The position numbers and the translations under genes were made by a program. 64,000 bases of DNA, taken from positions 23,374-87,373 of the forward strand of contig JBLNAZ010000082.1 in assembly GCA_050259615.1 (NCBI GenBank), written 5' to 3'. The DNA comes from Syntrophomonadaceae bacterium. Lineage in GTDB: Bacteria > Bacteroidota > Ignavibacteria > Ignavibacteriales > SURF-24. Below, piece by piece: positions 9,999 to 32,494 of this stretch; positions within the stretch are counted from its first letter, which is position 1; the number at the start of each line of letters is the position of its first letter. Below the pieces are notes generated by a model. That model was not told where the DNA came from and did not search any database. It saw only the letters and a program-made list of their open reading frames with translations.

Positions 9999-11324
9999 TT
10001 AATTTATCTCTCTGATTTTCTTCCAGAGCCTTTCTGCCTGAAGTCTTGCCTTTTCGTAAAACGGACTGGTATCAAAAGGAAAACTTCCTTCTTCGAGAAC
10101 AATCCTGCCGTTAATTATTACCGTTTCAACATTCTTTGAAGATAATCCGAAAATAATATGTCCTCCAAGGTTCTCAGATAATAAAGGCGTAGGGGATTGG
10201 TAATTAAACACAACAAGGTCAGCTGCAAAACCTTTCTCGATCTTTCCGAAATTTCTTTCAAAGTATTTATTAAGAATCAGGTTTCCATTCTGCAGGGCTT
10301 TAAGCAGGCCATCCAATGAAAAGTCCGCTCCGGCATCTGAACTTTTGTAGAAAGCCGTTTTCAGTTCTTCCAGCATGTCGGACCCAATGCCGTCAGTGCC
10401 CAGGGCGAGGTTATCAACGGATTTCAGCTTGTCTGAATATCCGACAGAATTGTTCATGTTTGAGCGCGGGTTATGCACAAGAAAAGACCCGCTGCGGTTT
10501 ATAAGATCAATATCATTTAGGCCAAGATGCACTCCGTGGGCCAGAATTGCCTTTTCATTCAGAAGGCCCGAGTTTTCCAGCCGCTCTGCAATGTCAAGAT
10601 CATGGTAATGATGTGAATAAGCTACGTCGTATCTGTCCTCGGCAGCGTGTATGTGAATGCCTCTTGCGGTTTCGCGTACTGTTTCAGAGAGCATCCTTAA
10701 GCTCCTGTCGCTTAAAGTGAACAGGGCATGAGCTCCTATTGCGCCTTCAATTAACCTGGATCTTTCCTCTTCTTGTTTTAAGCATTTCAGTTTACCAATA
10801 AACTCAACCGATTCCTCAATGCCTTCAAGAGTTCCTGTCTTTCCGTTTCTGTCCGTAACCTCATAGCACAGAATGCCGCGGAGTCCTGCCTTTAGAAATG
10901 ATTCTTTCAGCGTGTCGAGGGAGCCTTTAATAAATGAAGGCGATGCATTATGATCTATTACAGAAGTGGTGCCGCATTTTATAGCTTCAAGAGCACCAAT
11001 AACTCCGCTGTAATAAAGAGATTCTTCATCAAGTGCTCTATCCAGCCGCCACCATAGGTTCTTTAATATTCCGATAAAATCCCTGGATGGCTTAATTCCC
11101 GCCATTATGCCTCTTGCAAGCACTGAATAAAAATGATTATGCGAGCATACGAGACCGGGTGAGACGTACTTGCCCGTGCAGTCAATTACCCTGGCCTGGC
11201 TGTTATCCGGCGCGATATTGCTGCCCGCAGCAGTTATTTCACTTCCTTCAATTAAGACATCAATATTGTTTTTAACCGAAGGGGGATAGAAACTGATTAC
11301 GTTTGCATTTTTAAGTAATATCAT
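9999..11324 (-). CDS. ssnA: SsnA-type aminohydrolase (amidohydrolase superfamily)
   Basis: Metal motif CSHNHF, HIHAAED, and the block LKNLWWRLDRALDEESLYYSG that I recall as characteristic of E. coli SsnA. Its start overlaps the ygfK-like stop (ATGA). Confidence 0.88.
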   Translation of the reverse strand: MILLKNANVISFYPPSVKNNIDVLIEGSEITAAGSNIAPDNSQARVIDCTGKYVSPGLVCSHNHFYSVLARGIMAGIKPSRDFIGILKNLWWRLDRALDEESLYYSGVIGALEAIKCGTTSVIDHNASPSFIKGSLDTLKESFLKAGLRGILCYEVTDRNGKTGTLEGIEESVEFIGKLKCLKQEEERSRLIEGAIGAHALFTLSDRSLRMLSETVRETARGIHIHAAEDRYDVAYSHHYHDLDIAERLENSGLLNEKAILAHGVHLGLNDIDLINRSGSFLVHNPRSNMNNSVGYSDKLKSVDNLALGTDGIGSDMLEELKTAFYKSSDAGADFSLDGLLKALQNGNLILNKYFERNFGKIEKGFAADLVVFNYQSPTPLLSENLGGHIIFGLSSKNVETVIINGRIVLEEGSFPFDTSPFYEKARLQAERLWKKIREIN

Positions 11325-14300
11325 AACTGCCTCCCTCCATGGTATAATTCTTTAACTGAACTGCCCGGTATGAGATACCTGTAATTCTTGAGAACCAGCA
11401 CAATGGTTTTAATGAACTGATGAAAGGATTCATCCTGAAGGCTTGCTTCGAACGATGTAGTTATGACTTCTCCGAATCTGTCCAGCATTATTAGTCCTGT
11501 CTCATCTTCGTATCTTGCCAGGATAGAAGTTTCTGCGGATCCTTTATCCATTAAAAAACCGTTATTGCTGCTCCCGTAAAAGGATTTTTCATCGTAGAAT
11601 AGCGTGAGTTTATCCTTAAACGGGGAACCCTCGTGGGGACAGAAAGTTTCGCAGTTGCCGCAGCTGTTGCAAAGACTGTCGATGTGGAGTATCTGAAATC
11701 TGTCACTGAAGAGGTCGCAGTCTTCAGTTGAAACTGCAATGTTGGCGCGGTTCGGGCAAACCTCGACACAGATATTGCAAAGCAGATTGCAGTTCAGGCA
11801 TGCCCCAGCGCGGGTCTGATCGGAATTAGAAATATCTTTAATTACATTTCCCTTCAGGCTTACAATTCCGGAAAGGTCTCTTTTTTTATTATCTGATGTG
11901 CCGTTTTCTCCGGGCACAATTCCTTCCTTTGCAATTATATATTCTGCTGTTTTCTTTCCGTCTGAAATTGCATTTAATACGCTTGAAGGCCCCCTGAGAG
12001 CGTCTCCGCCAATAAATACATTATCCAGCACTGTTTCGTTTGAATTTATATTTACCCTTGGGCTAACGGCCTCATCTCCTGTTAAATTATTATTTCTTAA
12101 TAACTGATAATCTGTGTGTTCGCCTATTGCAGAAATTACCGTATCAATTTCAATCTCTTCAAATGAGCCATTTACAGCTCTTATGCCCATGCGTCCATCG
12201 GCCTCAGGAGCCGCGAGCTCCATTACCTGGCATTTAAGTGTGTTATCCTTAAAGCTAAAAGGCAGAAGGAGCTCTTTAATATTTATTCCTTCACTTATTG
12301 CTGCCTCAAGTTCCTCTTTATCGGCCGGCATGTATTTAATAGTCCTCCGGTAAATTATATACACCTGTTCCACGCCTTCAATTCTTCCGGCGGCTCTTGC
12401 CGAGTCCATTGCAGAATTGCCTCCGCCTATTACGGCTACATATTTCCCTAAAGAAAGTTTACTGCCGGAATTAAACGATCTTAAGAATTCAATTGCATTA
12501 TATATCCTGCCGGTTCCGCTTAATCCTGGTTCTGTTGACTCTGAGGCGCCAATGGCAACATAAATATATTTATAGCCGTCTTCCTTTAATTTCTGAACGG
12601 AGAAATTTCTATCAATATTGTAAATGAATTTTACGCCGTGTTTCTCAATGAATTCAACGTCGCGGTCAATTGCACTTTGAGGAATTCTGAAGTTAGGTAT
12701 TGAATGTCTGACAGTTCCCCCGGCTTTGGACTGGGTTTCGAAGACCGTAACATCAAAGCCTGCCTTTGCAAGAAAATATGCTGCCGTAAGTCCTGCCGGT
12801 CCGCCGCCTATTATTGCCGCCTTCGGGCTTCCGGGCTTAAGTGTTAAACTATCCCTGTTTTCCCTCATATATTGAACGAACCCGTTTTCTGCTGCTGATT
12901 TCTTCAGCTCACGTATCTGAACGGGCTCATCATATTCACGCCTTTGACAATTCCGCATGCAGTTGTGGTCGCAAATGTAGCCCGTAATATTAGGAAGCGG
13001 GTTTTTTTGGACAATGAGGTCAAAAGCTTTACTATAATTGCCTTCTTTTATAAAACTTATGTATTCCGGAATATCCTGATGTATCGGGCAGGCTTCAACA
13101 CACGGGGAAATGCAGCAGTCGAACATTTTCAGCTTTGATGTAACTTTTGGGGCAGTTACATTTTTTTTCGACTTACTGTAGTCTGCGTTTGTAAGAGAAT
13201 CCTCTGCCAGCTGTTTTAGTTTTTCAATATCAAGTATTTCCTTTGGAGAATCAGCCAGTATGATGCTTTCTTCTATAAGGTCTGCCATCTGCTTTAAGCG
13301 CATGTAACCGCCCGGCTTTAAGAGGTCCGTTACAAGCGTTACAGGATATATTCCTGTTTCTAGTATGGATAGGATGTTGCCTGAAACGGCTCCGCCAGAA
13401 AAAGATATATTGATTTTACCCGCAAACTCTTCTGCCAGGTGGTATGCAAGATTAACTGTCAGAGGGAAAAGAGTTCTTCCCGACATGTACATCTGACTTT
13501 CAGCAAATCTGTGTCTAATGTTATTTACCGGCAGTGTATTGGAAAGTTTTATGCCGAATGATTTTTTAAGACCTTCAGAAAAAGTTTGTAAGTTCTTAAT
13601 TAAGCTCACGGCCTCATCCATTTTTATGTCATGCCGAAAAGAACTTTCATCCAAAGAGAAATTACGTGACGTGGAATTAAGGATATTTTCAATCCGGTCA
13701 TACCCGAGAAGGGTAGGATTCAACTTAACAAAAGTATTAAGCTCTTTTTCCTTTAAGAGATATTCTGCAATTTTCTCAATCTCCCCCGGGGGGCAGCCGT
13801 GCATAGTAGAGAGCGTAACAGAATTGGACACCGCGGGTGAAATGCTTTCCAGCTGAGCGATTACTCTTTCAGTCAATTTCCCGGAACCTTTATTTTCAAG
13901 TGAGTCTCTGAATATGCGGAACAGTTTGCCCTGAGTGAAGGAAAGAACCGTATGCCGGTATTCGTCAAACAGGTCGTTTTTTGAAGCGTCTTTCAAACCT
14001 TCAATGAAATTATCCATTGTTTCATGCCTTATTCCGTCAAGATCATAACCCACACTCATATTGAAAACAAATGACCTCGTGGAATTATCTGAAAATCCGA
14101 ATGCAGCATTTAAGAAATGAATTAAAAACCACGCTTTCAAATATTCCCGGTATGAATCCTTAAGTGATAACTCCTGCGACCATTCCACATTGTAAGCTTC
14201 ATCCTCAGCATCAATACAGGGTCTGGCAACTTTTATATCATCCAGCTTCTGCACGGTTTTTAATTCGAAGAATCTTGCGCCGCAAAGAAAGGCTGTTACA

Positions 14301-14506
14301 ATGTTCTGCGACATCTGGGTGTGCGGGCCCGCAGCAGGACCAAGCGGAAGGTCGAGCCTCTGGCCGAAAATGCTGGCTGCATCATGCTTTCTCTTGTAGA
14401 AAAACTTTTCTTCAGGAATACCGAAAATAGACTTTTGATAAATGAATTCGCTTAGAATCCATTCAAGAAGGTCCTTTATGGCTACGGGCCTCATGCATTC
14501 GGACAT
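11321..14506 (-). CDS. ygfK: YgfK-type large Fe-S flavoprotein oxidoreductase (putative selenate reductase subunit YgfK family)
   Basis: The tracked ORF runs to 14644, but the conserved N-terminus begins MSECMRPVAIKDLLEWIL (ATG 14506). Motifs: GPAAGPHTQ/ELKTVQ TIM-barrel-like region, Rossmann motifs IIGGGPAGLTAA and VIGGGNSAMD, and Cys clusters (CCISPCVEACP, CLNCNLLCNICVEVCP, CNSCGNCETFCP). Confidence 0.88.
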   Translation of the reverse strand: MSECMRPVAIKDLLEWILSEFIYQKSIFGIPEEKFFYKRKHDAASIFGQRLDLPLGPAAGPHTQMSQNIVTAFLCGARFFELKTVQKLDDIKVARPCIDAEDEAYNVEWSQELSLKDSYREYLKAWFLIHFLNAAFGFSDNSTRSFVFNMSVGYDLDGIRHETMDNFIEGLKDASKNDLFDEYRHTVLSFTQGKLFRIFRDSLENKGSGKLTERVIAQLESISPAVSNSVTLSTMHGCPPGEIEKIAEYLLKEKELNTFVKLNPTLLGYDRIENILNSTSRNFSLDESSFRHDIKMDEAVSLIKNLQTFSEGLKKSFGIKLSNTLPVNNIRHRFAESQMYMSGRTLFPLTVNLAYHLAEEFAGKINISFSGGAVSGNILSILETGIYPVTLVTDLLKPGGYMRLKQMADLIEESIILADSPKEILDIEKLKQLAEDSLTNADYSKSKKNVTAPKVTSKLKMFDCCISPCVEACPIHQDIPEYISFIKEGNYSKAFDLIVQKNPLPNITGYICDHNCMRNCQRREYDEPVQIRELKKSAAENGFVQYMRENRDSLTLKPGSPKAAIIGGGPAGLTAAYFLAKAGFDVTVFETQSKAGGTVRHSIPNFRIPQSAIDRDVEFIEKHGVKFIYNIDRNFSVQKLKEDGYKYIYVAIGASESTEPGLSGTGRIYNAIEFLRSFNSGSKLSLGKYVAVIGGGNSAMDSARAAGRIEGVEQVYIIYRRTIKYMPADKEELEAAISEGINIKELLLPFSFKDNTLKCQVMELAAPEADGRMGIRAVNGSFEEIEIDTVISAIGEHTDYQLLRNNNLTGDEAVSPRVNINSNETVLDNVFIGGDALRGPSSVLNAISDGKKTAEYIIAKEGIVPGENGTSDNKKRDLSGIVSLKGNVIKDISNSDQTRAGACLNCNLLCNICVEVCPNRANIAVSTEDCDLFSDRFQILHIDSLCNSCGNCETFCPHEGSPFKDKLTLFYDEKSFYGSSNNGFLMDKGSAETSILARYEDETGLIMLDRFGEVITTSFEASLQDESFHQFIKTIVLVLKNYRYLIPGSSVKELYHGGRQL

Positions 14507-14815
14507 ATACAGGCTCCCTAAAATTGTTACGTAAAGAGCATTTAGTAACTGAAAAGCCGGCGAAAATCTTTGGTCAGAACGGAAAATTAAAGACAATATA
14601 AAAAGAATTTTTAAAATAATCCCAATACAAATTTTATTTGTCAAAAGTTGATATTAAAGAAAAAACTTATATTTTGCAGGGTACGTCTAAATTAATACAT
14701 GGTATTTTCAGCAAAATGATATCGCTGGCTCCAAATATTTTTAATAAAGCAGCTCTTTCAGGAATACTTCTTTCAATAAATGCCGTTCATTATAAAAACC
14801 ATAAAAGGATGATAT

Positions 14816-16000
14816 ATGGAACTTGCAAAGAGGATTTTAGAATGCGCACTGGGATATCAGCAATATACCGCAGAGAACCTTTCAAAATTAGTAAGGTGTA
14901 AATCTTTAAGCACGAAGGAAGAAAGTGCTGCCCTTGAACTAAAGGATATTATGACAAAGGCAGGCTTTGATGAAGTTGTAATAGACGGCCTCGGCAATGT
15001 AATAGGAAGAATAGGCTCAGGCAGTAAAGTAATTGCATTTGATGCCCATATAGATACTGTTGACGCGGGCAATTTGGAGAACTGGCACTTTGATCCCTTC
15101 GGCGGCGAAATTCAAGACGGATTTGTTCATGGGCGCGGCTCAGTAGACCAGAAGGGAGGTGCCGCAGCATTTGTCACCGCCGGAAAAATCATAAAGGAGC
15201 TGGGACTTTCAGAAGGTAAAACAATTTACTTCATCGGCTCAGTTATGGAGGAGGACTGCGACGGACTCTGCTGGAAATACATAATTGAGGAAGACAGGAT
15301 CAGACCAGGCTTTGTTGTTGTTACAGAGCCTACCAACCTTAATATCTACCGCGGGCATAGGGGCCGCATGGAAATTGAAATTGCGTTTCACGGCGTGTCA
15401 TCCCATGGAAGCGCCCCTGAAAGGGGAATAAACGCAATCTACATGGGATCAGGAACCGCCCTGAAAATAAAATCGCTCAATGAATGCCTTGCAGATGACG
15501 CTTTTCTCGGAAAAGGCTCTGTTACAGTTACAGAGTTCGTCTCCTCAAGCCCTTCTTTATGCGCTGTTGCTGATTACAGCAGAATACACCTCGACCGCAG
15601 GCTCACCTGGGGTGAAGACAGGGAAACGGCACTCCGCGAGGTACAGAATGTTATACTCGATTTGAATGCAAAAGCCGAAGTACTTACCTATAGCGGGAAA
15701 GCCTACACCGGCCTTGAATACGGTATGGAGAAATACTACCCCACCTGGAAGCTTGAAGAAAATGATCCCTTAATCCGCGCAGGAAAAGAAACCTTTGAAG
15801 AACTCTTTAATACTGATGCCTTTATTGATAAATGGACTTTCTCTACAAATGGGGTGGTCATAAAAGGGACCTATGGAATTCCTGTCCTGGGATTTGGACC
15901 CGGAGATGAGATTCTTGCGCATGCTCCTGATGAAAAGGTTCCTGTTGAGCATCTTTTTAAGGCGTCTGCATTCTATGCTTATCTGTGCAGTAAAGTGTAA
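14816..16000 (+). CDS. ygeY: YgeY-type M20 metallopeptidase/deacylase
   Basis: M20 motifs AHIDTV, GRGSVDQKG, MEEDCDG and HAPDE. It is adjacent to a ygeW-type gene, as in E. coli. Confidence 0.82.
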   Translation: MELAKRILECALGYQQYTAENLSKLVRCKSLSTKEESAALELKDIMTKAGFDEVVIDGLGNVIGRIGSGSKVIAFDAHIDTVDAGNLENWHFDPFGGEIQDGFVHGRGSVDQKGGAAAFVTAGKIIKELGLSEGKTIYFIGSVMEEDCDGLCWKYIIEEDRIRPGFVVVTEPTNLNIYRGHRGRMEIEIAFHGVSSHGSAPERGINAIYMGSGTALKIKSLNECLADDAFLGKGSVTVTEFVSSSPSLCAVADYSRIHLDRRLTWGEDRETALREVQNVILDLNAKAEVLTYSGKAYTGLEYGMEKYYPTWKLEENDPLIRAGKETFEELFNTDAFIDKWTFSTNGVVIKGTYGIPVLGFGPGDEILAHAPDEKVPVEHLFKASAFYAYLCSKV

Positions 16001-16038
16001 GTCATTTATAAATTTAATAAAGTAAACCGGGAGTATTT

Positions 16039-17049
16039 ATGGTTTCCAATCTTTACAGGAAGCACTTCCTGAGCGATGACGACTGGACGAGGCAGGAGCT
16101 TGATACCGCTTTTGAAACTGCATTCGACCTGAAGAAAATGTTTGCCCGCGGTGAGTCGCACAGGCTTCTTCAGGATAAAACACTTTTTAATATCTTCTTT
16201 GAGCAGTCAACACGCACAAGAAATTCAATGGAAGCGGGTATGACGCAGCTCGGCGGCCATGCGCACGACCTGACGGCAGACAAGATGCAGATCTCGCACG
16301 GCGAGTCGGCAAAGGATACAGCAATTATTTTGTCCCGAATGGGCCACGGCATCGCATGCAGAAACTGCTTTTACGGAACAGGAAAAAAGTACCTCGACGA
16401 AATGGCCAGGTACGCCACAGTGCCTGTTATGTCGCTTCAGGATGACGTTTATCACCCCTTCCAGGGACTAGCCGACCTGATGACGATATTTGAACACTTC
16501 GGGCGTAATACTAAAGGACTTAAAGTTACAGTCTCATGGGCTTTTGCCGATACGCATTCCAAACCCCTTTCTGTGCCTCAGACTCAGATCCTTCTTTTCC
16601 CGAGGTACGGAATAGATGTAACAGTAGCACACCCGGCGGAATTTCCGCTAAGCAAAAATATTATGGAAAAGGCGTGCAAGAATGCCATATCCGGAGGCGG
16701 AAGCCTCAGGTTTACAAATAATATGGATGAGGCATTTGAAGGAGCCCAGATTGTAATCCCTAAAAACTGGGGCGGCTTCGGCTTCTACAGCATGGAGGAT
16801 TATCTTAGTAATGAGGATGAATGCAAAAAGGAAATGAGAGCTAACATTATTAAATATAAAAGCTGGATATGTGATGAAAGAAGAATCAGACTGGCTGATA
16901 AAAATGTAAAGCTTATGCATGCACTTCCGGCCGACAGGGGGCATGAGGTTACAGATGAAATTCTTGATAACCCTGAAATATCAATTGTGTATGATGAGGC
17001 CGAAAACCGCCTCCATACAGCCAAGGCCATTATGTCTTTGACGATGTAA
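16039..17049 (+). CDS. ygeW: YgeW-type (knotted) carbamoyltransferase
   Basis: Carbamoyl-phosphate motif STRTR, plus HPFQ and HALPADRG. The blocks QISHGES, KPLSVPQ and DVTVAHP match my recollection of YgeW rather than OTC/ATC. Confidence 0.82.
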   Translation: MVSNLYRKHFLSDDDWTRQELDTAFETAFDLKKMFARGESHRLLQDKTLFNIFFEQSTRTRNSMEAGMTQLGGHAHDLTADKMQISHGESAKDTAIILSRMGHGIACRNCFYGTGKKYLDEMARYATVPVMSLQDDVYHPFQGLADLMTIFEHFGRNTKGLKVTVSWAFADTHSKPLSVPQTQILLFPRYGIDVTVAHPAEFPLSKNIMEKACKNAISGGGSLRFTNNMDEAFEGAQIVIPKNWGGFGFYSMEDYLSNEDECKKEMRANIIKYKSWICDERRIRLADKNVKLMHALPADRGHEVTDEILDNPEISIVYDEAENRLHTAKAIMSLTM

Positions 17050-17067
17050 CAAAGATTTTTATCAGAA

Positions 17068-23656: not shown

Positions 23657-26002
23657 TTACAAAGTCAGCTTTTCCGAAATTGAATTTTCAAATGCACGGA
23701 GTACTTTTTCAGGCGTAAACGGCGCAGAGAAAAGCCTTTTGCCCGTAGCATTATAAAAAGCATTTGCCACTGAAGGCAGAGCCCCGTTTATGTTTATTTC
23801 AGAAATTGACTTTGCGCCGAACGGGCCGGTTTCCTCGTATGAATTTACTAAAAATACTTCAACCGGGGGAACGTCGGGTGCCGTCATTACTCCGTACTTT
23901 CCGAATGTATCATTAAGAAGCTTCCCTTTTTCTGAGAAGTAATAGTCCTCAAAAAGAGCATAAGCAAGGCCGCTTACAATCGCACCCTGCGCCTGCCCTT
24001 CAGCCAGCACAGGATTAATAGGTATTCCACAGTCAACAGCAGCCACATAGTTCAGCACTTTTATAGTTCCCGTCAGGCTGTCAACCTCAATTTCCGCAAA
24101 ATGCGCCGCAAACGGGGGCGGCGACTTGGGGGACATATGTGAGGCAGTGGCCTGTATCTGGTACTGGTTTTTTCCGTAAAAACTATAGCGGCATATTTCT
24201 TCAAAAGAAACTCCTGACATGCCGTCTTTCGAAATAACCGAGCTGTCTTTTAATTCCACTTTGCTTTCTTCAAGATTTAAGATCTCGGCGCCGGTCTTTA
24301 GTATCTGGTTTCTGATTTCCCCGGCACATTTTATTACTGCCTGCCCAGATAAATAAGTAGTTGATGAAGCGTAAGCTCCTTTATCAAACGGCGTATGGTC
24401 TGTGTCGGATGAATTAACAATCATCTTACTAACCGGTGTGTCCAGCACTTCGGAGGCTATCTGTGCCAGAATGGTATCGGAGCCTGTTCCAAGGTCAGTT
24501 GCTCCAATAAGGAGGTTGAAAGATCCGTCGTCATTCATTTTCATATAGGCTGAGGCCATATCAATTTCAGGAATGGCACTTCCCTGCATCATAACGCTCA
24601 TTCCTATTCCTCTTTTAATTCTGCCCGAGTTAAAAGGGGAGTCTTTGCCGTAGAGTTTTCTTTTTTCGTACCAGCCGGACTCCTTTGCGCCAATAGTGAT
24701 GCATTCTTCAAGAGAAGAAGATCCTATTGTCATTGCAACGCCTTCTTTTCCTTCTCCCAAGGCCTGGAAAATCGGGGAGGTTTCGCCTGACCTGATCGTC
24801 CATTTTTTATAGAATTCAATTATGTCTGTACCTGTATCCTCGCAGATCATATCAACTATTTGTCCAAAGCCGAAATATGCTTCAGTTGCCCCGTAGCCCC
24901 TGTAGGCCCCGCCGCATGGGAGATTTGTATAGACCCCCTTGCCTGTAAACTTCAGGTGTTCAATTTTATTGAGTAACGGAAGAGTCTTGCTTCCCGCGTT
25001 TGAAAGCACCGTAAGGGCGTGTGAGCCGTAGCCGCCGGAGTTTTCAAGAGCGTCGAGGTGCAGGGCATTAATTCTGCCGTCAGGGTCATACCCGGCCTTA
25101 AAAATTGTTCTGTACTGATGGCGTGTGCGTGAGGACCTGAAGACCTCTTTTCTTGAATAGGTGAGTTTTGCAGGGCGCTTTGTGCGCCAGGTAATTAAAG
25201 CCGCGACGGGTTCAAGTAAAACTTCCTGCTTGCCCCCGAAACCTCCGCCAACCCTGGGTTTTATTACCCTGATCTGTGAAATTGGAATTTCACATACAGA
25301 AGAAACAATTCTTCTTACATGAAACGGCACCTGTGTTGTGGAGCGGATTACAAGGCGCCCGCGGCTGTCGAGGTATGAAATAGCAGCATGCGGCTCAATT
25401 GCGCAATGTGAAGCATATGGCGCATGGAATGTGCACTCCAGTTTTTTTGGCGAGCTTTCATATGCCTCCTCAAAGTCGCCTACCGAGGCTTCCACTTTTG
25501 CTGCAATGTTTTCAGGAGCGTTGTAGTAAACAGGTATTTTTGCATGGGAGCCGTCGTTATCATGAATTACAATATCAGAACCCTCGGCCTTTTCAAAATC
25601 GAGCACTGCATTTAGAACATTAAATTTTACTTTTATTTTGCTTAATGCGGCTTCTGCAATTTCTTTGCTTTCTGCCGCAACGGCACACACATTATCCCCA
25701 ACAAAGCGCATAACATCGTTGAAGAGGCAGGTATCATATGGTGAAGGCTCCGGGTATCCCTGCCCTGCAGTGGTATAAAGAATTTTTTTTATGTTTTTAT
25801 ATGAAAGGACTTCAACAACGCCGTCCATTTTGCGGGCTTCCGAGTCGTCAATATCTTCTATTTTTGCGTGGGCATAGCCGGAGTGCAGAATTGCAACGTA
25901 AAGCATGTCCTTGTACTTAAAGTCGTCGGTATATTGTTCCTCGCCCGTAACCAGAGCCATGCCGTCAGTTTTTTCTATTGGGTGGTTTACATATCTGAAC
26001 AT
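23657..26002 (-). CDS. xanthine dehydrogenase-family molybdopterin-binding subunit (three-subunit enzyme)
   Basis: 781 aa. a/b-hammerhead N-terminus, GGGFGGK, GGAYRGYGATE, C-terminal PFGAKSISE (active-site Glu region). It overlaps the Fe-S subunit gene by 16 nt. Confidence 0.9.
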   Translation of the reverse strand: MFRYVNHPIEKTDGMALVTGEEQYTDDFKYKDMLYVAILHSGYAHAKIEDIDDSEARKMDGVVEVLSYKNIKKILYTTAGQGYPEPSPYDTCLFNDVMRFVGDNVCAVAAESKEIAEAALSKIKVKFNVLNAVLDFEKAEGSDIVIHDNDGSHAKIPVYYNAPENIAAKVEASVGDFEEAYESSPKKLECTFHAPYASHCAIEPHAAISYLDSRGRLVIRSTTQVPFHVRRIVSSVCEIPISQIRVIKPRVGGGFGGKQEVLLEPVAALITWRTKRPAKLTYSRKEVFRSSRTRHQYRTIFKAGYDPDGRINALHLDALENSGGYGSHALTVLSNAGSKTLPLLNKIEHLKFTGKGVYTNLPCGGAYRGYGATEAYFGFGQIVDMICEDTGTDIIEFYKKWTIRSGETSPIFQALGEGKEGVAMTIGSSSLEECITIGAKESGWYEKRKLYGKDSPFNSGRIKRGIGMSVMMQGSAIPEIDMASAYMKMNDDGSFNLLIGATDLGTGSDTILAQIASEVLDTPVSKMIVNSSDTDHTPFDKGAYASSTTYLSGQAVIKCAGEIRNQILKTGAEILNLEESKVELKDSSVISKDGMSGVSFEEICRYSFYGKNQYQIQATASHMSPKSPPPFAAHFAEIEVDSLTGTIKVLNYVAAVDCGIPINPVLAEGQAQGAIVSGLAYALFEDYYFSEKGKLLNDTFGKYGVMTAPDVPPVEVFLVNSYEETGPFGAKSISEININGALPSVANAFYNATGKRLFSAPFTPEKVLRAFENSISEKLTL

Positions 26003-26490
26003 ACTGCCTCCGGTTTATTTGTTTCTTCTATAAGAGAAGCTTTTGCCGCGTTTTCTACGGCTTCCACAATTTTAACATATCCCGTGCAGCGGCAGAGATT
26101 TCCGTCAAGTCCGCGTTTTATGTCCTCTTTACTGGGTTTGTTGTTTGTTTGCTTCAGAATGCTGTATGAGGCAACGACCATTCCCGGTGAACAGAAGCCG
26201 CACTGGTCGGCTCCGGCTTCAACAAAAGCTTTCTGTATCATGTGCGGGAGGTGAATTGTCCCAATGCCTTTTACGGTTTTGATTTTTTTATCCCTCACGC
26301 TCATTGCAAGAACCTGGCACGAGTTTACCGGCCAGTCATCCAGAAGCACCAGGCAGGCGCCGCATTCGCCTTCATTGCAGCCGCATTTTACTTCTGTATA
26401 ATCGTTATTTCTTAAAACTGCAAGAAGCGTTTCATTCGGCTTTACTTCCAGCTCTTTTGTCCGGGAGTTTATGCTAAAGGGAATTTTCAT
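25987..26490 (-). CDS. [2Fe-2S]-binding subunit of molybdenum hydroxylase
   Basis: CGCNEGECGACLV (plant-type cluster), plus CGFCSPG and CRCTGY (second cluster). Confidence 0.9.
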   Translation of the reverse strand: MKIPFSINSRTKELEVKPNETLLAVLRNNDYTEVKCGCNEGECGACLVLLDDWPVNSCQVLAMSVRDKKIKTVKGIGTIHLPHMIQKAFVEAGADQCGFCSPGMVVASYSILKQTNNKPSKEDIKRGLDGNLCRCTGYVKIVEAVENAAKASLIEETNKPEAVCSDM

Positions 26491-27311
26491 CTTGCGCCTC
26501 CCTTAAGTTCGTTTAATAGGTCCATGAAGTATATGCGCGCCGTTTTATCCTTATAGCCGGCGCTGAACTTATAGTCGGAAATAAACCCCGGATTAATATG
26601 CTTTAGCACATTCTCCAGAGGCATATCATCCATTGTTCTTCCTGAAAGCATTTTCTCTGCTTTCAGGAATCTCTTAAATCTTCCCCTTACTCCTGTAATT
26701 ACGAGTCGGGCATCTTCTATAATGCCGCCGTTTAGCCTGAGGCCTGCTGCAATTGTAAATAACGGATATTCAAATGCCAGCTGCGAAAACCTCTTTACCC
26801 CTGAAACTAAATTATTCTCATCATCAATTATAACATGCTTTATTACGTGTTTGTTTTTTATTATTCCTTTAGTAACATAGTCTTCAACCGTATGGATTTC
26901 AGATTTCCCCCTTAAGATTTCAATTCTGGCATTTAAGGCGATAAGAGGCGCATAAAGGCTCGACCAGACCGGAAAATCCTTCAGGGAGCCTCCAAGTGTA
27001 ATTCTGTTTCTTAAGGGAGTTGAAGCTGCATGTGAAAGTGCCTCACCCAGAATATGGAGCTTGTTTTCTTTCTTTGAAAATTTTACTAGTTCAGCGAACG
27101 TAACAGCCGAGCCTATATAGAAAGCATTGTCGATGTAGTTGATATAATTGAGGCCCAGAGAGCCCACGTCTATAAGAAGTTTTACCGATTTGGGGCAGGT
27201 TTTAAGTATTCTTGTTCCTCCGGCATGAAGTATTGCTCCGGGGCGCTTTAGTAATTGCGCCGCCTTTTCAACTGAGGAGGGGAATTCCCACTCTAAATTT
27301 TCTGGAAGCAT
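26487..27311 (-). CDS. FAD-binding subunit of molybdenum hydroxylase (CoxM/YgfM-like)
   Basis: HAGGTRIL and RNRITLGGSL motifs of the FAD_binding_5 / CO-dehydrogenase flavoprotein type. 4-nt overlap with the Fe-S subunit gene. Confidence 0.88.
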   Translation of the reverse strand: MLPENLEWEFPSSVEKAAQLLKRPGAILHAGGTRILKTCPKSVKLLIDVGSLGLNYINYIDNAFYIGSAVTFAELVKFSKKENKLHILGEALSHAASTPLRNRITLGGSLKDFPVWSSLYAPLIALNARIEILRGKSEIHTVEDYVTKGIIKNKHVIKHVIIDDENNLVSGVKRFSQLAFEYPLFTIAAGLRLNGGIIEDARLVITGVRGRFKRFLKAEKMLSGRTMDDMPLENVLKHINPGFISDYKFSAGYKDKTARIYFMDLLNELKGGAR

Positions 27312-27345: not shown

Positions 27346-28707
27346 TTAGTTAAGCCTGCTCAAAAGCCTCCGGGAGATTTCATTCCCTTTTTTAATTAAA
27401 TATTCCTCATCCTCTCCAACGAGGTATCCGTTTTCAACCATAACTTTTCCGTTTACAACGGTGTATTTTGTTTCGTGGCTGATACCTGCAAAGATAAGTG
27501 CAGCAAGAGGATCCGACAGGCTTCCCGCATACTCCAGTTTATTTAAATTAAAGACAGCCAGGTCAGCCAGGAATCCTTCCCTTATTTTGCCCGTATTATT
27601 GTAGTTCAGTATTCTTGCTCCGTTTTCAGTTGCCATCTTAAAGACATCTTCACATTTCAAGGCCTCCGCGCCGTATTTTACCCTTTGCAGAAGCAGCGCA
27701 TTTCTCAGCTCGCCCAGCATGTCTGAACTGTCGTTTGAAGCCGAACCGTCAACGGCAAGCCCCACGTTTATTCCAAGCTTAAGCATATCCTTTATTCTTG
27801 CCACTCCTGAGCCGAGGCGCATATTTGAAGTAGGGCAGTGTGCAATTGATGTGTTTGTACGTGCAAGAACTTCCAGCTCCTCGTCGTTAAAGAAAACTCC
27901 GTGCGCAAAGAAAACATCGCTGCCGAGGAAGTCCACCTCTTCCATTACGGCAAGTGGATTTTTACCGAACATATTATTGCAGAAAACTTCTTCATCCATT
28001 GTTTCGGCTAAATGAGTATGGAGCCGCACGTTATGCTTTCTTGCAAGCTCGGCCGTTTTCTTCATATTTTCTTTTGTAACTGAAAATGGTGAGCATGGTG
28101 CCAGGACTATTTTCCGCATCGAGTCTTCTTCAGGGTCGTGATAGGTTTCTATTACACGCTCGCTGTCTTCAAGAATTCTATCTTCATTCTGCACCACGGA
28201 ATCCGGAGGCAGCCCGCCGAGCTTTTCCCCAAGCGACATGGAGCCGCGTGAAGGGGAGAACCGGATGCCAAGCTGACAGGCGGCTGAAAACTGGATCCCC
28301 ATCAGATCTCCCTTAAATCCTTCGGGATAAAGGTAATGGTGGTCGGTTGTCAGCGTGCAGCCTGTTTTCAAAAGCTCGCCAATTGCCATCATGGAAGAAT
28401 AATAAACAGCCTCTTCATCAATATTTTTCCATACCTGATAAAGATATTTAAGCCAGTCGAAAAGTTTTGCATTCTGCACTTCTTTCAGATTCCGTGTAAG
28501 CGTCTGAAAGAAATGATGATGCGTATTTACAAGCCCCGGTATAACAATGCATCCGGAGCAGTCGAGTATCTTATCAGTAATTAAATCGGCCTCAATATCC
28601 TTCCCGATCCGTTTTATACGGTTGTCGTCAATTAGTATGTCGGAGTTTGTAATTATCCTGTCCTGGTCAGGCTGTGCTATATAAGCACAATTTTTAAGCA
28701 GCAGCAT
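27346..28707 (-). CDS. amidohydrolase-superfamily deaminase (8-oxoguanine / guanine / isoxanthopterin deaminase-like)
   Basis: PGLVNTHHHFFQTLTR (HxH), HTHLAET, FAHGV, AVDGSASND. It lies between two molybdenum hydroxylase gene sets. Confidence 0.82.
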   Translation of the reverse strand: MLLLKNCAYIAQPDQDRIITNSDILIDDNRIKRIGKDIEADLITDKILDCSGCIVIPGLVNTHHHFFQTLTRNLKEVQNAKLFDWLKYLYQVWKNIDEEAVYYSSMMAIGELLKTGCTLTTDHHYLYPEGFKGDLMGIQFSAACQLGIRFSPSRGSMSLGEKLGGLPPDSVVQNEDRILEDSERVIETYHDPEEDSMRKIVLAPCSPFSVTKENMKKTAELARKHNVRLHTHLAETMDEEVFCNNMFGKNPLAVMEEVDFLGSDVFFAHGVFFNDEELEVLARTNTSIAHCPTSNMRLGSGVARIKDMLKLGINVGLAVDGSASNDSSDMLGELRNALLLQRVKYGAEALKCEDVFKMATENGARILNYNNTGKIREGFLADLAVFNLNKLEYAGSLSDPLAALIFAGISHETKYTVVNGKVMVENGYLVGEDEEYLIKKGNEISRRLLSRLN

Positions 28708-28740
28708 TTGAAACCTGTTTTTATTTATAAGTTAATTTTC

Positions 28741-31017
28741 TCAAGCCGGTACGGAATGCTTTTCTTCTTCATATAGCAAAAGCAGCACCCTCTCGTTTGT
28801 AAGCGGGGCTTTTAGCTCAAACCTTTTTTCAGGTCTGAACTCCTTCATGGCATTAAGAATTGCAAAGAAAACCCCTATCCCATACATGAATGGAGGCTCG
28901 CCAACAGCCTTTGAGTTGAAGACGCCGCGCTCGTTAAATGAATTCTCCAGATTTTCCACCTTAAGCTCCCTGGGCGAAAAATATATATCAGGCACCTTAT
29001 AACTTGAAAGCGCGTCACTCTTAAGCTTGCCTGCTTTATCATAAACTACTTCTTCCAGTGTCAGCCATCCAAGACCCTGAAGAATGGCGCCTTCGGCCTG
29101 TCCGCGGTCAATTGTCGGATTTAATGAATTGCCGAAATCGTGCACGGCTTTAACAGAATCAATTTCATACGTTCCTTTAATACAGTTAAGTGTCACTTCG
29201 ATTATTGCGGTTCCATAGACGTGATAGTTGAACGGGCGTCCCTGATTCAGATCCCGGTCGAAATAAATTCCAGGCGTGGCATAATGAGCATGCGCGGAAA
29301 GGTCTGTTCTCCTCCTGAATGCCTTTAGTACAAGATCCTTCCAGCTAATACCGGCTAATTCTCCTTTCATGAGAACTTCTTCATTTTCAATTGTCACCTC
29401 TGAGACTTCTTTAGTATCCAGCTCCAGCGCAGCAATTTTTATTAAGCGCTCCAGCAGCTCCTGGCAGGCTATTTCCAGAGCCTTTCCGTTCATATCGGCA
29501 GCCGAGCTTGCTGCAGTTGGCGAGGTGTTTGCTACGCGCGTTGTATTTGCAGCCTCAGTTTTTACATTGCCTATATCAACTGAAAATATTTTTGCCGCAA
29601 TCTGCCTCAGCTTCATATTCACACCCTGGCCCATTTCAACAGCTGCAGTGCTTATTCCTATAGTGCCGTCTGAATAGATGTGTACAAGGGCGCCTGCCTG
29701 ATTCATAAAAGTATTTGTAAATGATATTCCAAAGCATATGGGCATCATTGCAAAGCCCTTTTTTAAGAACATATTCTCGCGGTTAAACTTTCTGATGCTC
29801 TCTTCCATATGGCTTAAATTAAAAGTATTTACTGCAGATTTCCAGCTTCTTAAAGCATTGCAGCTTTCGGCTTTCTGGCCATACGGGAATGTGTCTCCTT
29901 CCTTTAGGAGATTTTTTTCCTGAATCAGTCTTGCTTCAACTCCCATTTTTTCTGCAGCCCTGTAAATTGCGCTTTCAATTACAAACATCCCCTGCGGTGC
30001 CCCGAAGCCGCGGAATGCAGTATTTGGAGGGAGGTTTGTCCTTAAGCTGTAAGCGGTTGCCTTTACGTTTGGAATATAGTAGCTGTTCGTAGAGTGAAAA
30101 AGCGTTCTGTCGAGTATGGCAGGCGACAGGTCAGCTGAAGCCCCGGCGTTCTGGTAAAATGTCACCTCATAGGCAAGTATTTTCCCGTCCAGGTCAAGAC
30201 CCATCCTGAAGTCCGATGAATAAGGATGCCTTTTGCCCGTAACTTTTATATCCTCATGCCTCGGTAAAACAAGTTTTATGGGACGTTTTAATTTTAATGC
30301 GGCCAGCGCTGCCATTGCGGCAAATGCGTTAGCCTGATCCTCCTTGCCTCCAAAGCCGCCGCCCAGGCGTGGAACTTCAACTTCAATTTTGTTCATCGGG
30401 AGACCCGTAACCTTTGACACGGCCCTCTGGACTGCTGTTGGAGCCTGCGTTGCTGAGATGATCTTTATGCCCCCTGAGTCTGACGGATAAGCAATTGAGC
30501 CCTGTGTTTCAAGGTAAAGGTGTTCCTGAGCGCCTGTTTCAGCTGTGCCTTCTACAATTACAGGGCACCTGTCCCAAACAAGGGAAGTATCTCCCATGGT
30601 AAACACCCTTGGAGGTAGGATAAAGTCCCCGTTTTTGAAAGCTTCACGCGGATCTGTAACTACAGGCAGCTCCTCAAATTCAATTTTTATTTTCCCCGCG
30701 GCTTTTCTTGCTGCATCCTGGCTTTCAGCAACAGCAACTGCAATTGACTGCCCTGCGTAGTGCACAAAATCCTCTGCAAGCAAAGGCTCATCATCAATAA
30801 TGCCACCAATCTGGTTTTCCCCCGGAATATGCACTGAGGTAAAAACTGCTTTAACTCCCGGTACAGAATACGCATCTGCCAAATTAATGCTCAGTATTCT
30901 GGCGTGAGCCTGTGAAGAGTAAAATATGGAAGCATAGAGCGCGTCACCAGGAAGACTTATGTCGTCAATAAACTTCGACTCACCGCAGGCGTGAAAATTG
31001 TTGTCGCTGTTTTTCAT
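28741..31017 (-). CDS. xdhB: xanthine dehydrogenase molybdopterin-binding subunit (XdhB in R. capsulatus nomenclature)
   Basis: 758 aa. GGGFGGKE, FRGFGAPQG, and SKAVGEPPF containing the catalytic Glu of true XDH enzymes. Confidence 0.9.
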   Translation of the reverse strand: MKNSDNNFHACGESKFIDDISLPGDALYASIFYSSQAHARILSINLADAYSVPGVKAVFTSVHIPGENQIGGIIDDEPLLAEDFVHYAGQSIAVAVAESQDAARKAAGKIKIEFEELPVVTDPREAFKNGDFILPPRVFTMGDTSLVWDRCPVIVEGTAETGAQEHLYLETQGSIAYPSDSGGIKIISATQAPTAVQRAVSKVTGLPMNKIEVEVPRLGGGFGGKEDQANAFAAMAALAALKLKRPIKLVLPRHEDIKVTGKRHPYSSDFRMGLDLDGKILAYEVTFYQNAGASADLSPAILDRTLFHSTNSYYIPNVKATAYSLRTNLPPNTAFRGFGAPQGMFVIESAIYRAAEKMGVEARLIQEKNLLKEGDTFPYGQKAESCNALRSWKSAVNTFNLSHMEESIRKFNRENMFLKKGFAMMPICFGISFTNTFMNQAGALVHIYSDGTIGISTAAVEMGQGVNMKLRQIAAKIFSVDIGNVKTEAANTTRVANTSPTAASSAADMNGKALEIACQELLERLIKIAALELDTKEVSEVTIENEEVLMKGELAGISWKDLVLKAFRRRTDLSAHAHYATPGIYFDRDLNQGRPFNYHVYGTAIIEVTLNCIKGTYEIDSVKAVHDFGNSLNPTIDRGQAEGAILQGLGWLTLEEVVYDKAGKLKSDALSSYKVPDIYFSPRELKVENLENSFNERGVFNSKAVGEPPFMYGIGVFFAILNAMKEFRPEKRFELKAPLTNERVLLLLYEEEKHSVPA

Positions 31018-31078
31018 ATAACTTCAGACTATCTCCGGTTACTGAAAAAATATTGCCGCTTCTGCTGAAAAAAATCTA

Positions 31079-32494
31079 CTATTCACTAAAGAGCATTTCA
31101 GGACTTTCAACGAGTTCATGAGAAAATTTCAGAAAATGGGCAAATATGATCTGCCTGAGGAGAAGACTTTTATACTCTTTAGAGCCCCTTATGTCGCTGA
31201 TGGGGCTTATTTCATTCTGCGCAATTAAAGCAGCATTCCGTACGTTTTCAAAAGTAATTTCTCTGCCGGTTAAGAAGGAAACTGTTTCTTTCAGGTATAA
31301 AGGAACCGGTGCAACACCCCCGGCGGAAATGTGAATGGTTTTAATAAACCCGTCCTCCGCTTTCATTAAGAAAGACGAATTAACGCTGGCAATGTCCAGG
31401 TGTGTCCTTCGCGAGATTTTTTCATAGTTAAAAAAGGATCCCTTTTCAGGCAGGGGAAATTTTACTTTTACTATCAGCTCGTCTTCTTCTTTCTCAAGGT
31501 TCTTATATCCCAGGTAAAAATCTTTTAAGGCTGTTTCTCTTAACTGACTGCCCTGAATTGCAAGGGTGCTGTCAAGAGCTAGAAGAATATTTACCATGTC
31601 GGCAGCAGGGGAGGCGTTTACAATATTTCCGCCAAGCGTAGCCCGGTTTCTTATCTGCTGCGATCCGAAGAGCCTTGCGTAATTACTAATATCGGGGAAA
31701 TAGCTTTTCAGAATTTCTGAATCCATTATGCGGGAAATAGTCACTCCGGCATCCAGAATTATAAAGCCGTCTTCCAGGCATATTTCCTCTTCTTTACTTT
31801 CCTTCTGGAACTTAAGACTTATATCCGGAATTATATCACGCTTCTGCAGCATAACGTCTGTCCCTCCGGCAATATAAATTCCGGGGGTGTCCATTCTTTC
31901 AGGTTCGGGTATATCTTTAAGTAAATCGGGAATATCAATAAAATAATAGGGGAGATAGCCTCTTTCAACAAGCCATTCAAGCCGTCTGTTGTCCGGCTGA
32001 GGGTTTATTTCAAAATCGGTTAAGAAGTACTGAACTGCTCTTTTAATTGACTGATAGCCTGTGCAGCGGCATAAGTTGCCTGCCATAAAATCAACTGCAT
32101 TTTCCAGGCTGAGGAATTTACCGGAAAGGAGGAAGCCCGTCAAGGACATGACCATTCCGGGGGTGCAGAATCCGCACTGAATGGCTCCTTCACTTACCAG
32201 GGCCTCCTGGAAAGGTGTAAGAGCCTTCTGGTTGATACCTTCAATTGTAACAACGTGTTTGCCGTGAACAGATCCTATAGGCAAAAGGCACGAGTTCTGT
32301 GTACTATAGGTGGTTTTGCCCCCTTTATATTCGCCTATAAGCACCGTGCATGCCCCGCAGTCACCCTCGCGGCATCCTTCCTTTGTTCCGGTTAAATAAA
32401 GTTCACCCCTGATAAAATCAAGCAAAGTCATGGCGGGGCTTAAGAAAGTGCGTATCTCTTTCCCGTTGCAGATAAAGATAACCGGATTTTCCAA
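31079..32494 (-). CDS. xdhA: xanthine dehydrogenase small subunit, [2Fe-2S] + FAD domains (XdhA in R. capsulatus nomenclature)
   Basis: CREGDCGACTV, CGFCTPG, CRCTGY, then FAD domain AGGTDVMLQ and RNRATLGGNI. The only in-frame start after the upstream TAG is TTG 32494, with GAGG 8 nt upstream. Confidence 0.88.
   Translation of the reverse strand: MENPVIFICNGKEIRTFLSPAMTLLDFIRGELYLTGTKEGCREGDCGACTVLIGEYKGGKTTYSTQNSCLLPIGSVHGKHVVTIEGINQKALTPFQEALVSEGAIQCGFCTPGMVMSLTGFLLSGKFLSLENAVDFMAGNLCRCTGYQSIKRAVQYFLTDFEINPQPDNRRLEWLVERGYLPYYFIDIPDLLKDIPEPERMDTPGIYIAGGTDVMLQKRDIIPDISLKFQKESKEEEICLEDGFIILDAGVTISRIMDSEILKSYFPDISNYARLFGSQQIRNRATLGGNIVNASPAADMVNILLALDSTLAIQGSQLRETALKDFYLGYKNLEKEEDELIVKVKFPLPEKGSFFNYEKISRRTHLDIASVNSSFLMKAEDGFIKTIHISAGGVAPVPLYLKETVSFLTGREITFENVRNAALIAQNEISPISDIRGSKEYKSLLLRQIIFAHFLKFSHELVESPEMLFSE

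Follow-up and report, generated by a model that had tools for sequence, protein, structure and literature searches.

A probable variant of the reductive urate pathway in an Ignavibacteria bacterium and its conserved pair of uncharacterised pyridoxal phosphate enzymes

We analysed a stretch of 64,000 nucleotides from contig JBLNAZ010000082.1 of the Syntrophomonadaceae bacterium assembly GCA_050259615.1, here called the window, which contains a gene cluster resembling the ygeW-ygfM region of Escherichia coli. Judged from its sequence, the cluster is likely to be a purine and urate catabolic locus of an uncultured Ignavibacteria bacterium, following a variant of the reductive (2,8-dioxopurine) pathway of uric acid degradation. 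An open reading frame (ORF) map and a check of starts, stops and junctions place the genes in three transcription units, minus 14506 to 9999, plus 14816 to 21394 and minus 32494 to 22200, as an earlier note on this DNA had proposed. In transcription order, the first unit encodes YgfK and SsnA, and the second encodes YgeY, a carbamoyltransferase, a pyridoxal phosphate (PLP) enzyme (PLP1), a MocA-like protein, a second PLP enzyme (PLP2) and an XdhC-like protein. The third begins with an FeS/FAD subunit and a molybdenum subunit (Mo2), followed by a deaminase, the FAD, [2Fe-2S] and molybdenum subunits of another molybdenum enzyme (FAD1, FeS1 and Mo1) and a cyclic amidohydrolase. The ATGA overlaps described earlier are also present, with four of 4 nt (SsnA/YgfK, PLP1/MocA, PLP2/XdhC and FeS1/FAD1) besides one overlap of 16 nt. 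The units hold 2 + 6 + 7 = 15 genes rather than the 16 first counted; a conserved sixteenth ORF (21703-22134) lies between units. Two genes with the PF00291 domain, at 17068-18321 and 19032/19059-20528, had been omitted from the earlier list.

The GC content is 0.42-0.46 across the cluster, the same as in its flanks. The same gene order recurs on related contigs, including those of Ignavibacteria metagenome-assembled genomes (MAGs), with proteins 50-90% identical, so the arrangement is not due to chance. The UvrA encoded in the window shares 92-95% identity with proteins of Ignavibacteria/Ignavibacteriales MAGs and 77% with those of Ignavibacterium and Melioribacter, in keeping with the Fibrobacterota-Chlorobiota-Bacteroidota (FCB) host proposed earlier.

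To assign families we used the curated cut-offs of NCBIfam as the membership threshold, with scores in bits, and we queried the whole window by tblastn with 22 proteins of the E. coli xdhA-uacT region. SsnA, YgfK, YgeY and an 8-oxoguanine-deaminase-family enzyme lie above their cut-offs. The SsnA amidohydrolase (9999-11324, minus) scores 535 against NF005540 (cut-off 444) and 530 against TIGR03314 (cut-off 455.5), is 51% identical to E. coli SsnA and would open the reduced 2,8-dioxopurine ring. Adjoining it with a 4-nt overlap is ygfK (11321-14506, minus), encoding an Fe-S flavoprotein and predicted 2,8-dioxopurine reductase that scores 1239 against TIGR03315 (cut-off 835) and is 42% identical to E. 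coli YgfK over its full length of 1055 residues, with the match starting at 14506. The ORF extends to a TTG at 14644; since the hidden Markov model (HMM) match begins at residue 48 of this longer ORF, we place the start at the ATG at 14506. YgeY, an M20 hydrolase (14816-16000, plus; NF009555, 506 with cut-off 321), is 50.5% identical to its E. coli counterpart and would remove ureido (carbamoyl) groups to leave 2,3-diaminopropionate. The deaminase-family aminohydrolase (27346-28707, minus; NF006055, 585 with cut-off 532) would feed in aminopurines. The earlier note had suggested scoring the proteins against family HMMs. Those for SsnA, YgfK and YgeY give scores above cut-off, whereas YgeW and the xanthine dehydrogenase subunits fall below theirs and YqeB gives no match.

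In E. coli, the region ygeW-ygeX-ygeY-hyuA-yqeA ... mocA-ygfK-ssnA-ygfM-xdhD encodes reductive uric acid degradation (Li et al., Life Metab 2025, PMC12507026), and the functions of the hallmark enzymes have been reconstituted in vitro (PMC12507026; bioRxiv 10.1101/2025.04.24.650524). Urate is converted to 2,8-dioxopurine by XdhD-YgfM in E. coli (PMC12507026) and by the SelD-dependent XdhAC in Clostridium sporogenes (bioRxiv 10.1101/2025.04.24.650524). YgfK and SsnA then yield ureidomethyl-hydantoin and HyuA forms 2,3-diureidopropionate, from which YgeW (using phosphate) and YgeY strip the two ureido groups; YqeA turns the resulting carbamoyl phosphate into ATP, and YgeX finally converts 2,3-diaminopropionate to pyruvate and ammonia (PMC12507026; bioRxiv 10.1101/2025.04.24.650524). 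The earlier note had framed the locus as one of anaerobic urate and purine degradation, and these 2025 studies of the E. coli region agree with it. The likeness to the E. coli gene set also stands, with SsnA, YgfK and YgeY orthologues at 42-51% identity, a MocA-like gene and a carbamoyltransferase with the substrate-loop motifs of YgeW.

The first step from urate would fall to the enzyme formed by Mo1, FeS1 and FAD1. Mo1, the XdhD-like molybdopterin subunit (23657-26002, minus), is closer to E. coli XdhD (36.6% identity, 441 bits) than to XdhA (30%, 358 bits) by tblastn, and its family scores are 611 for the XdhA type (cut-off 780) and 556 for the XdhD family TIGR03313 (cut-off 1102). A four-way alignment revealed two insertions common to Mo1 and XdhD and not found in XdhA. 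One of them is the loop LGEGKEG, kept in 20 of 20 Mo1-type orthologues of related loci, and Glu417 of Mo1 is the equivalent of XdhD Glu606, the residue singled out by Li et al. as orienting urate (PMC12507026). The nearest solved relative of Mo1 is the alpha subunit of 4-hydroxybenzoyl-CoA reductase from Thauera aromatica (PDB 1rm6, 310 bits). The [2Fe-2S] subunit FeS1 (25987-26490, minus) scores 158 against NF043084 (cut-off 217) and is 40% identical to E. coli XdhC, and the YgfM/XdhB-like FAD1 (26487-27311, minus) carries PF00941 and PF03450 and is 25% identical to YgfM. Because of the XdhD-like insertions, the Glu606 loop and a nearest solved relative that is a reductive dehydroxylase, we assign to this enzyme the putative reduction of urate to 2,8-dioxopurine. 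As in XdhD-YgfM, an XdhD-like protein is paired with an FAD subunit; the Fe-S domain, however, is fused in XdhD and is a separate subunit here. 4-Hydroxybenzoyl-CoA reductase is likewise a reductive dehydroxylase of the xanthine dehydrogenase (XDH) family, the reaction type proposed for Mo1, but it acts on an aromatic CoA thioester and has a ferredoxin-dependent electron module, whereas the FAD subunit at our locus is an ordinary, YgfM/XdhB-like one.

The second molybdenum enzyme looks like a conventional xanthine dehydrogenase. Its XdhB-type large subunit, Mo2 (28741-31017, minus), scores 772 against TIGR02965 (cut-off 849.5) and has the canonical motifs GGGFGGKE, FRGFGAPQ and GEPP, which we take to correspond to bovine Glu802, Arg880 and Glu1261. 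The XdhA-type small subunit (31079-32494, minus), with 2Fe-2S and FAD domains, matches TIGR02963 end to end at 337 (cut-off 467); it starts at a TTG, with an alternative ATG at codon 22. The pair is assigned, from sequence likeness, to the oxidation of xanthine and hypoxanthine. As in E. coli, where xdhABC and guaD are adjacent, feeders in the form of a xanthine dehydrogenase and a purine deaminase adjoin the cluster, but the dehydrogenase is of the Rhodobacter/Pseudomonas XdhAB type rather than XdhABC.

Cofactor maturation is represented by two proteins of the second unit. The MocA-like molybdenum cofactor cytidylyltransferase (18318-18995, plus) carries PF12804, scores 126 against TIGR03310 (cut-off 186) and is 30% identical to E. 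coli MocA. The XdhC-like insertion chaperone (20525-21394, plus) combines PF02625 and PF13478 and scores 109 against TIGR02964 (cut-off 162). Together they would mature the cytidine-dinucleotide molybdenum cofactor of both hydroxylases. The earlier note had labelled the gene set selenium-dependent. Under such an explanation both molybdenum hydroxylases would carry a labile selenium ligand supplied through SelD, YqeB and YqeC, as in C. sporogenes and Clostridioides difficile. All gut-strain genomes with the urate cluster do have YqeBC and SelD, and the C. sporogenes DOPDH needs SelD (bioRxiv 10.1101/2025.04.24.650524). The XdhC-like protein of the window is also 28% identical to E. coli YqeB, and one related isolate locus, from Desulforhopalus (L077), has a true YqeB. 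However, the match covers only residues 1-247. E. coli YqeB has two parts, an N-terminal half resembling XdhC and, fused to it, a C-terminal domain specific to YqeB (TIGR03309), and no window protein matches TIGR03309, although the same model detects the YqeB of L077 at 346 bits (cut-off 220). By tblastn, the YqeB-specific domain was found neither in the window nor in 84 of 85 related loci, L077 being the exception, and YqeC was found neither in the window nor in any of the 85. No selenophosphate synthase family appeared in NCBIfam and Pfam scans of the window's long ORFs, of which a few were left unscanned, and selD itself was not a query. Plain XdhC is a chaperone of sulfurated rather than selenated molybdenum cofactor, as for the Rhodobacter XDH, which also speaks against selenium. 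With neither the YqeB-specific domain nor YqeC found in the window, the selenium label is unsupported for the Ignavibacteria variant, and we consider a selenium-dependent version unlikely.

Two further observations concern maturation. In a syntenic relative (L009, 14275-15157), the XdhC-like gene is followed by an ORF of 77 residues and then by a ThiF/MoeB-like E1 gene, which could together form a sulfur-carrier relay for sulfuration of the molybdenum cofactor. PLP2, which sits between mocA and xdhC, was considered as a sulfur or selenium donor for cofactor maturation. It was dropped as the main explanation, since the two PLP genes adjoin YgeY, YgeW and YqeA, far from xdhC, in most other phyla.

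The carbamoyltransferase (16039-17049, plus; 336 residues) had been described as YgeW-type. It falls below the YgeW cut-offs (197 against NF005538, cut-off 453; 191 against TIGR03316, cut-off 500) and belongs to a shorter sister subfamily; its best score is for ornithine carbamoyltransferase (OTC; 229, cut-off 306). It is 34% identical to E. coli YgeW by tblastn, and its best PDB match is that same protein (3q98, 170 bits), narrowly above Pyrococcus OTC. With YgeW it has in common the KPLSVPQ loop and the PK(N/S)W motif. It keeps STRTR and HPxQ, lacks both the D-x-x-x-SMG ornithine motif of OTC and the insertions of YgeW, and ends in an OTC-like C-terminus, HALPADRG. The short form and true YgeW, the latter 62-70% identical to the E. 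coli protein, alternate among related loci (17 versus 15), and in two Spirochaetota loci (L023 and L031) the short form adjoins a carbamate kinase. Its motifs suggest that it probably works like YgeW, though it lies outside the YgeW equivalog.

The cyclic amidohydrolase (22200-23624, minus) noted earlier is indeed one, but it is allantoinase-like rather than HyuA-like. It scores 326 against the allantoinase model TIGR03178 (cut-off 358) and 247 against the D-hydantoinase model TIGR02033 (cut-off 393), matches the allantoinases 3hm7 and 3e74 in the PDB at 226 and 219 bits compared with about 170 for hydantoinases, and is 27% identical to E. coli HyuA by tblastn. Allantoin is 5-ureidohydantoin, one CH2 shorter than ureidomethyl-hydantoin. 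From this likeness the enzyme is presumed to open the ureidomethyl-hydantoin ring in the role of HyuA. Where an allantoinase-like gene occurs with any carbamoyltransferase, the latter is of the short type (9 of 9 such loci), whereas HyuA-type genes are paired with true YgeW in three loci, with one exception, L014, that combines a HyuA-type gene with the short form. The pairing of allantoinase-like and short forms may reflect phylogeny or a stereochemical switch.

These two enzymes could also serve a hydrolytic anaerobic allantoin route, in which the xanthine dehydrogenase would make urate and degradation would proceed through the allantoinase-like enzyme, YgeY as an allantoate-amidohydrolase-like protein and the carbamoyltransferase as an oxamate carbamoyltransferase. 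The amidohydrolase does score best against allantoinases, and M20 hydrolases and catabolic carbamoyltransferases are found in the allantoin/oxalurate route too. Yet SsnA, YgfK and YgeY pass the family cut-offs of the reductive pathway, and the gene for the allantoinase-like protein shares an operon with the XdhD-like enzyme and lies between Mo1 and SsnA in distant loci and phyla. General NCBIfam and Pfam scans of long ORFs, with no dedicated search, gave no uricase, 5-hydroxyisourate hydrolase, 2-oxo-4-hydroxy-4-carboxy-5-ureidoimidazoline decarboxylase, ureidoglycolate dehydrogenase or allantoicase. We regard the allantoin route as highly improbable. Reductive pyrimidine degradation, whose PydA, PydB and PydC are resembled by YgfK, the cyclic amidohydrolase and YgeY, was rejected because the proteins exceed the cut-offs of purine-specific families and their genes share operons with XDH-family enzymes.

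The last step of the reductive pathway has no YgeX at this locus. The earlier note's statement that a YgeX-type enzyme is missing is literally true, but the two fold-type-II PLP enzymes that it did not list occupy the niche. No diaminopropionate ammonia-lyase family is among the NCBIfam matches of the window proteins, and E. coli YgeX aligns with the two genes by tblastn at 25-33% identity over 46-108 residues only, a weak, fold-level similarity. PLP1 (17068-18321, plus; PF00291) is threonine-synthase-like, with a conserved N-terminal CxxC...CxxC zinc ribbon and the threonine synthase 2zsj as its best PDB profile match (234 bits). PLP2 (19059-20528, plus; PF00291) has the CysK/CBS (cystathionine beta-synthase) fold with N- and C-terminal extensions. 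Its ORF opens at a GTG at 19032, and the ATG at 19059 gives 489 residues, as in relatives. An AlphaFold2 model of PLP2 (pLDDT 80) has CBS and CysK as its top Foldseek matches at 23-27% identity, and the protein keeps the PLP lysine, the S-T-G-N loop and the GSAGT phosphate loop. Both folds are known for beta-elimination and beta-replacement on beta-substituted alanines, and 2,3-diaminopropionate and albizziin are such alanines.

One could instead regard PLP1 and PLP2 as ordinary threonine and cysteine synthases that happen to lie in the operon, with a YgeX homologue elsewhere handling the C3 product. PLP1 just reaches the thrC cut-off (TIGR00260, 168.6 with cut-off 167.1), and relatives are publicly annotated as 'threonine synthase', in the case of PLP1 at 50-78% identity, and 'cysteine synthase'. 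However, the threonine synthase motif NPYR(I/L)EGQKT reads NPMTIEGKKT in PLP1, its arginine being replaced by Thr215, which is invariant in 21 relatives. We take this arginine to be the residue that binds the substrate phosphate in Thermus threonine synthase, and with it replaced PLP1 is unlikely to be a threonine synthase. PLP2, despite at most 27% identity to solved CysK/CBS proteins, is about 64% identical across phyla (63-64% even to Anaerolinea and Anoxybacter proteins). The neighbourhood of the pair, with YgeY and the carbamoyltransferase, is also maintained in Ignavibacteria, Spirochaetota, Desulfobacterota, Zixibacteria, Marinimicrobia, WOR-3 and Acidobacteriota. A purely biosynthetic role therefore appears very unlikely.

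To place the pair in a wider context, GTDB species genomes were scanned with a PLP1 alignment, which returned 80 loci, and the cluster genes were mapped onto these. Among the 45 loci of at least 15 kb, YgeY occurs in 34, a carbamoyltransferase in 32, PLP2 in 34, SsnA in 25, YgfK in 20 and an XDH-family molybdenum subunit in 27, compared with YgeX in only one; 39 of the 45 have at least one of YgeY, the short carbamoyltransferase, YgeW, SsnA and YgfK. Over all 80 loci, YgeX is present in three, the gene directly upstream of PLP1 encodes the short carbamoyltransferase, YgeW or YgeY in 41, and that directly downstream encodes PLP2 or MocA in 56. Loci with the pair come from Ignavibacteria, Spirochaetota, Desulfobacterota, Zixibacteriota, Marinimicrobia/Fidelibacterota, WOR-3, SAR324 and Acidobacteriota. 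About ten Desulfobacterota loci have a TRAP transporter immediately upstream of PLP1, within a stand-alone module of the order GntR-YgeY-YqeA-TRAP(DctQMP)-PLP1-PLP2-YgeW (L046, 2458-13901; also L027, L035, L037, L056, L071, L080 and L087). Between loci, the TRAP proteins share 78-92% identity. Several of these loci have no XDH, SsnA or YgfK nearby, an arrangement suggesting that a ureido or diamino acid is taken up from outside and degraded. In this lower-pathway module the PLP pair holds the place that YgeX has in E. coli. A serine dehydratase adjoins the module in L046, and a serine hydroxymethyltransferase gene lies between PLP2 and PLP1 in L077; these neighbours hint at a route through serine.

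From its place beside YgeY and the carbamoyltransferase in many phyla and the rarity of YgeX, the PLP pair probably supplies the terminal step from the C3 compound to pyruvate, possibly by way of serine. The chemistry may be beta-replacement of 2,3-diaminopropionate or albizziin to give serine, or direct elimination of urea from albizziin. More tentatively, it is possible that the pair forms a terminal module that has so far gone unrecognised in the anaerobic purine degradation of many environmental anaerobes, replacing or supplementing YgeX. Along with the short carbamoyltransferase and the allantoinase-like hydrolase, which vary together, it could be the sign of a branch of the pathway with a distinct (L-series) stereochemistry. 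In the cultured Anaerolinea thermophila UNI-1 (L090, 2234-11467), PLP2 is accompanied by a PALP (PF00291) gene of 419 residues, a candidate PLP1-like gene. Upstream of these two are a Bmp-type nucleoside ABC transporter and a PNPOx-like gene, and no YgeY, SsnA or YgfK occurs within 10 kb; the arrangement is a further link of the PLP pair to nucleoside or purine metabolism.

Several observations weigh against our reading. For seven of the 15 proteins, the score against the most similar family stays under the curated cut-off, and at the position of bovine Arg880 Mo1 has an arginine where XdhD has a glutamine. The loci were picked by similarity to PLP1 and give no unbiased frequency of YgeX versus PLP1/PLP2. 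Three Geobacteraceae-like loci carry YgeX alongside both PLP1 and PLP2, so the pair is not simply a replacement for YgeX. PLP2 relatives also occur outside urate clusters, beside a glycyl-radical enzyme in Anoxybacter and beside a nucleoside ABC transporter in Anaerolinea. Finally, neither a carbamate kinase nor a permease for purines or urate nor a regulator was found within the window, as the earlier note had also reported for these and for yqeC. By tblastn, yqeA, yqeC, ygeV, xanQ, ghxQ, uacT and ygfS have no match there, and NCBIfam and Pfam scans of the long ORFs, a few of them unscanned, gave no carbamate kinase or NCS2 permease. A YqeA-type carbamate kinase is present in some related loci. 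Since two Ignavibacteria relatives (L013 and L014) have, next to SsnA, a gene for an amino-acid kinase with 34-35% identity to YqeA, the ATP harvest may be encoded elsewhere in this genome; alternatively, carbamoyl phosphate may go to biosynthesis.

Taken together, the genes of the cluster can be arranged into a variant reductive pathway. The 8-oxoguanine-deaminase-family enzyme would deaminate aminopurines, and the XdhAB-type enzyme (28741-32494) would oxidise hypoxanthine and xanthine to urate. The XdhD-like three-subunit enzyme (23657-27311) would then remove the C6 hydroxyl of urate reductively to give 2,8-dioxopurine, whose ring would be reduced by YgfK and opened by SsnA to ureidomethyl-hydantoin. 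The allantoinase-like hydrolase would open the hydantoin to 2,3-diureidopropionate. One ureido group would be phosphorolysed to carbamoyl phosphate by the short carbamoyltransferase and the other hydrolysed by YgeY, leaving 2,3-diaminopropionate, which the ThrC-like and CysK-like PLP enzymes, rather than YgeX, would convert to pyruvate and ammonia directly or via serine. We infer every one of these substrates, least securely for the two PLP enzymes, the carbamoyltransferase and the allantoinase-like hydrolase.

Such a system is of a known kind. It differs from that of E. coli in having an allantoinase-like hydrolase for HyuA, a 336-residue sister subfamily for YgeW and two PLP enzymes with no YgeX, and YqeA, the YqeB-specific domain, YqeC, the YgeV regulator and a permease are not in the window. 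Compared by description, the same overall chemistry is proposed for C. sporogenes (DOPDH XdhAC, DOPOR/YgfK, SsnA, HyuA, YgeW, YqeA, YgeY and YgeX). That organism, however, depends on SelD and YqeB/YqeC and gains ATP through YgeW and YqeA (bioRxiv 10.1101/2025.04.24.650524), and neither set of markers was seen in the window. Li et al. describe variants in C. difficile (UacX/UacY) and in Chloroflexota with an F420-dependent reductase (PMC12507026), in which steps are likewise filled by non-orthologous enzymes; a ThrC-like/CysK-like PLP variant is not described there. Neither 2025 paper mentions PLP1- or PLP2-type enzymes (PMC12507026; bioRxiv 10.1101/2025.04.24.650524), and a literature search found no threonine-synthase-like enzyme in a urate cluster. 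Among phyla with SsnA, Li et al. name neither Bacteroidota nor Ignavibacteria (PMC12507026), the searched supplementary tables of Liu et al. 2025 contain no such terms as Ignavibacteria, Bacteroidota or other phyla, and in the gut isolates of Liu et al. 2022 the use of urate was 'notably absent in Bacteroidetes'. The locus is new in five respects, namely the host lineage, the three-subunit XdhD-like enzyme, the allantoinase-like hydrolase, the short carbamoyltransferase and the PLP pair. To a specialist the cluster as such is ordinary; what merits further attention is the PLP pair, which is widely conserved and uncharacterised.

Between the units, the 309-bp gap separating ygfK from ygeY (14507-14815) is presumed to hold the divergent promoters. 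Aligned with relatives it has only AT-rich blocks in common, with the closest ones (L007 and L016), and no inverted repeats or operators were found in it. An Rfam search of the whole window, in which purine, molybdenum cofactor and guanidine riboswitches were sought, gave a single tRNA and no family in this gap, and a scan for sigma-70 promoters and terminators did no better than on shuffled sequence. The sixteenth ORF (21703-22134, plus; 143 residues), between the convergent units, has a Lumazine_bd_2 domain (PF12893) and, by eye, a hydrophobic, signal-peptide-like N-terminus; it recurs there in L007, L008 and L016, with 61-85% identity. Next to it, a perfect 12-bp inverted repeat (22159-22188, AAAATCCCGGCC-6 nt-GGCCGGGATTTT) probably forms a hairpin that serves as a bidirectional terminator.

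Several neighbouring genes deserve mention. A DnaJ-domain gene (8908-9906, minus) lies 92 bp downstream of ssnA and may be cotranscribed with it; it is kept there in L007 and L008 but not in L009. A PAS-domain adenylate/guanylate cyclase (5357-6502, plus), a few kb away, is the sole signalling protein nearby and has no link to the cluster. On the other side, the cluster is adjoined by a subclass-B1 metallo-beta-lactamase gene (33715-34539, minus; 202.4, NCBIfam cut-off 200) and a second gene of that fold (Lactamase_B_2; 32857-33714, plus). A run of multihaem c-type cytochrome genes follows (34733-41808, minus), including an ORF of 427 residues with no Pfam match and a 916-residue protein with many CXXCH motifs fused to a cytochrome b561 (Ni_hydr_CYTB) membrane domain, which suggests extracellular or periplasmic electron transfer. 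A protein with a type IX secretion system tail also flanks the cluster. Further away, an operon-like run of five genes (50944-59018, minus) starts with citrate lyase alpha, above its cut-off. It continues with a citrate lyase beta bearing an N-terminal gamma (acyl-carrier)-like part, a PrpD/MmgE-like protein, a fused homoaconitase-type large and small subunit (895 bits) and a homoisocitrate/isopropylmalate-dehydrogenase-like gene. This unusual combination may constitute a tricarboxylate catabolic route.

The reductive urate pathway was solved in 2025 in gut Bacillota and E. coli only, and this locus probably extends it to free-living Ignavibacteria. These belong to the FCB group, in whose gut members (Bacteroidetes) urate use was reported to be lacking. 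Different enzyme subfamilies would take over four of the steps here, with no sign of the selenium trait. The PLP pair is a concrete, clonable target for enzymologists. It also bears on genome surveys: in their analysis of genome neighbourhoods, Li et al. identified 'YgeX' by PF00291 (PMC12507026), a domain matched by both PLP1 and PLP2. Surveys that score YgeX by Pfam PALP, or by BLAST with clostridial proteins, mis-assign or miss the environmental version, and such errors would bias estimates of where anaerobic purine mineralisation occurs.

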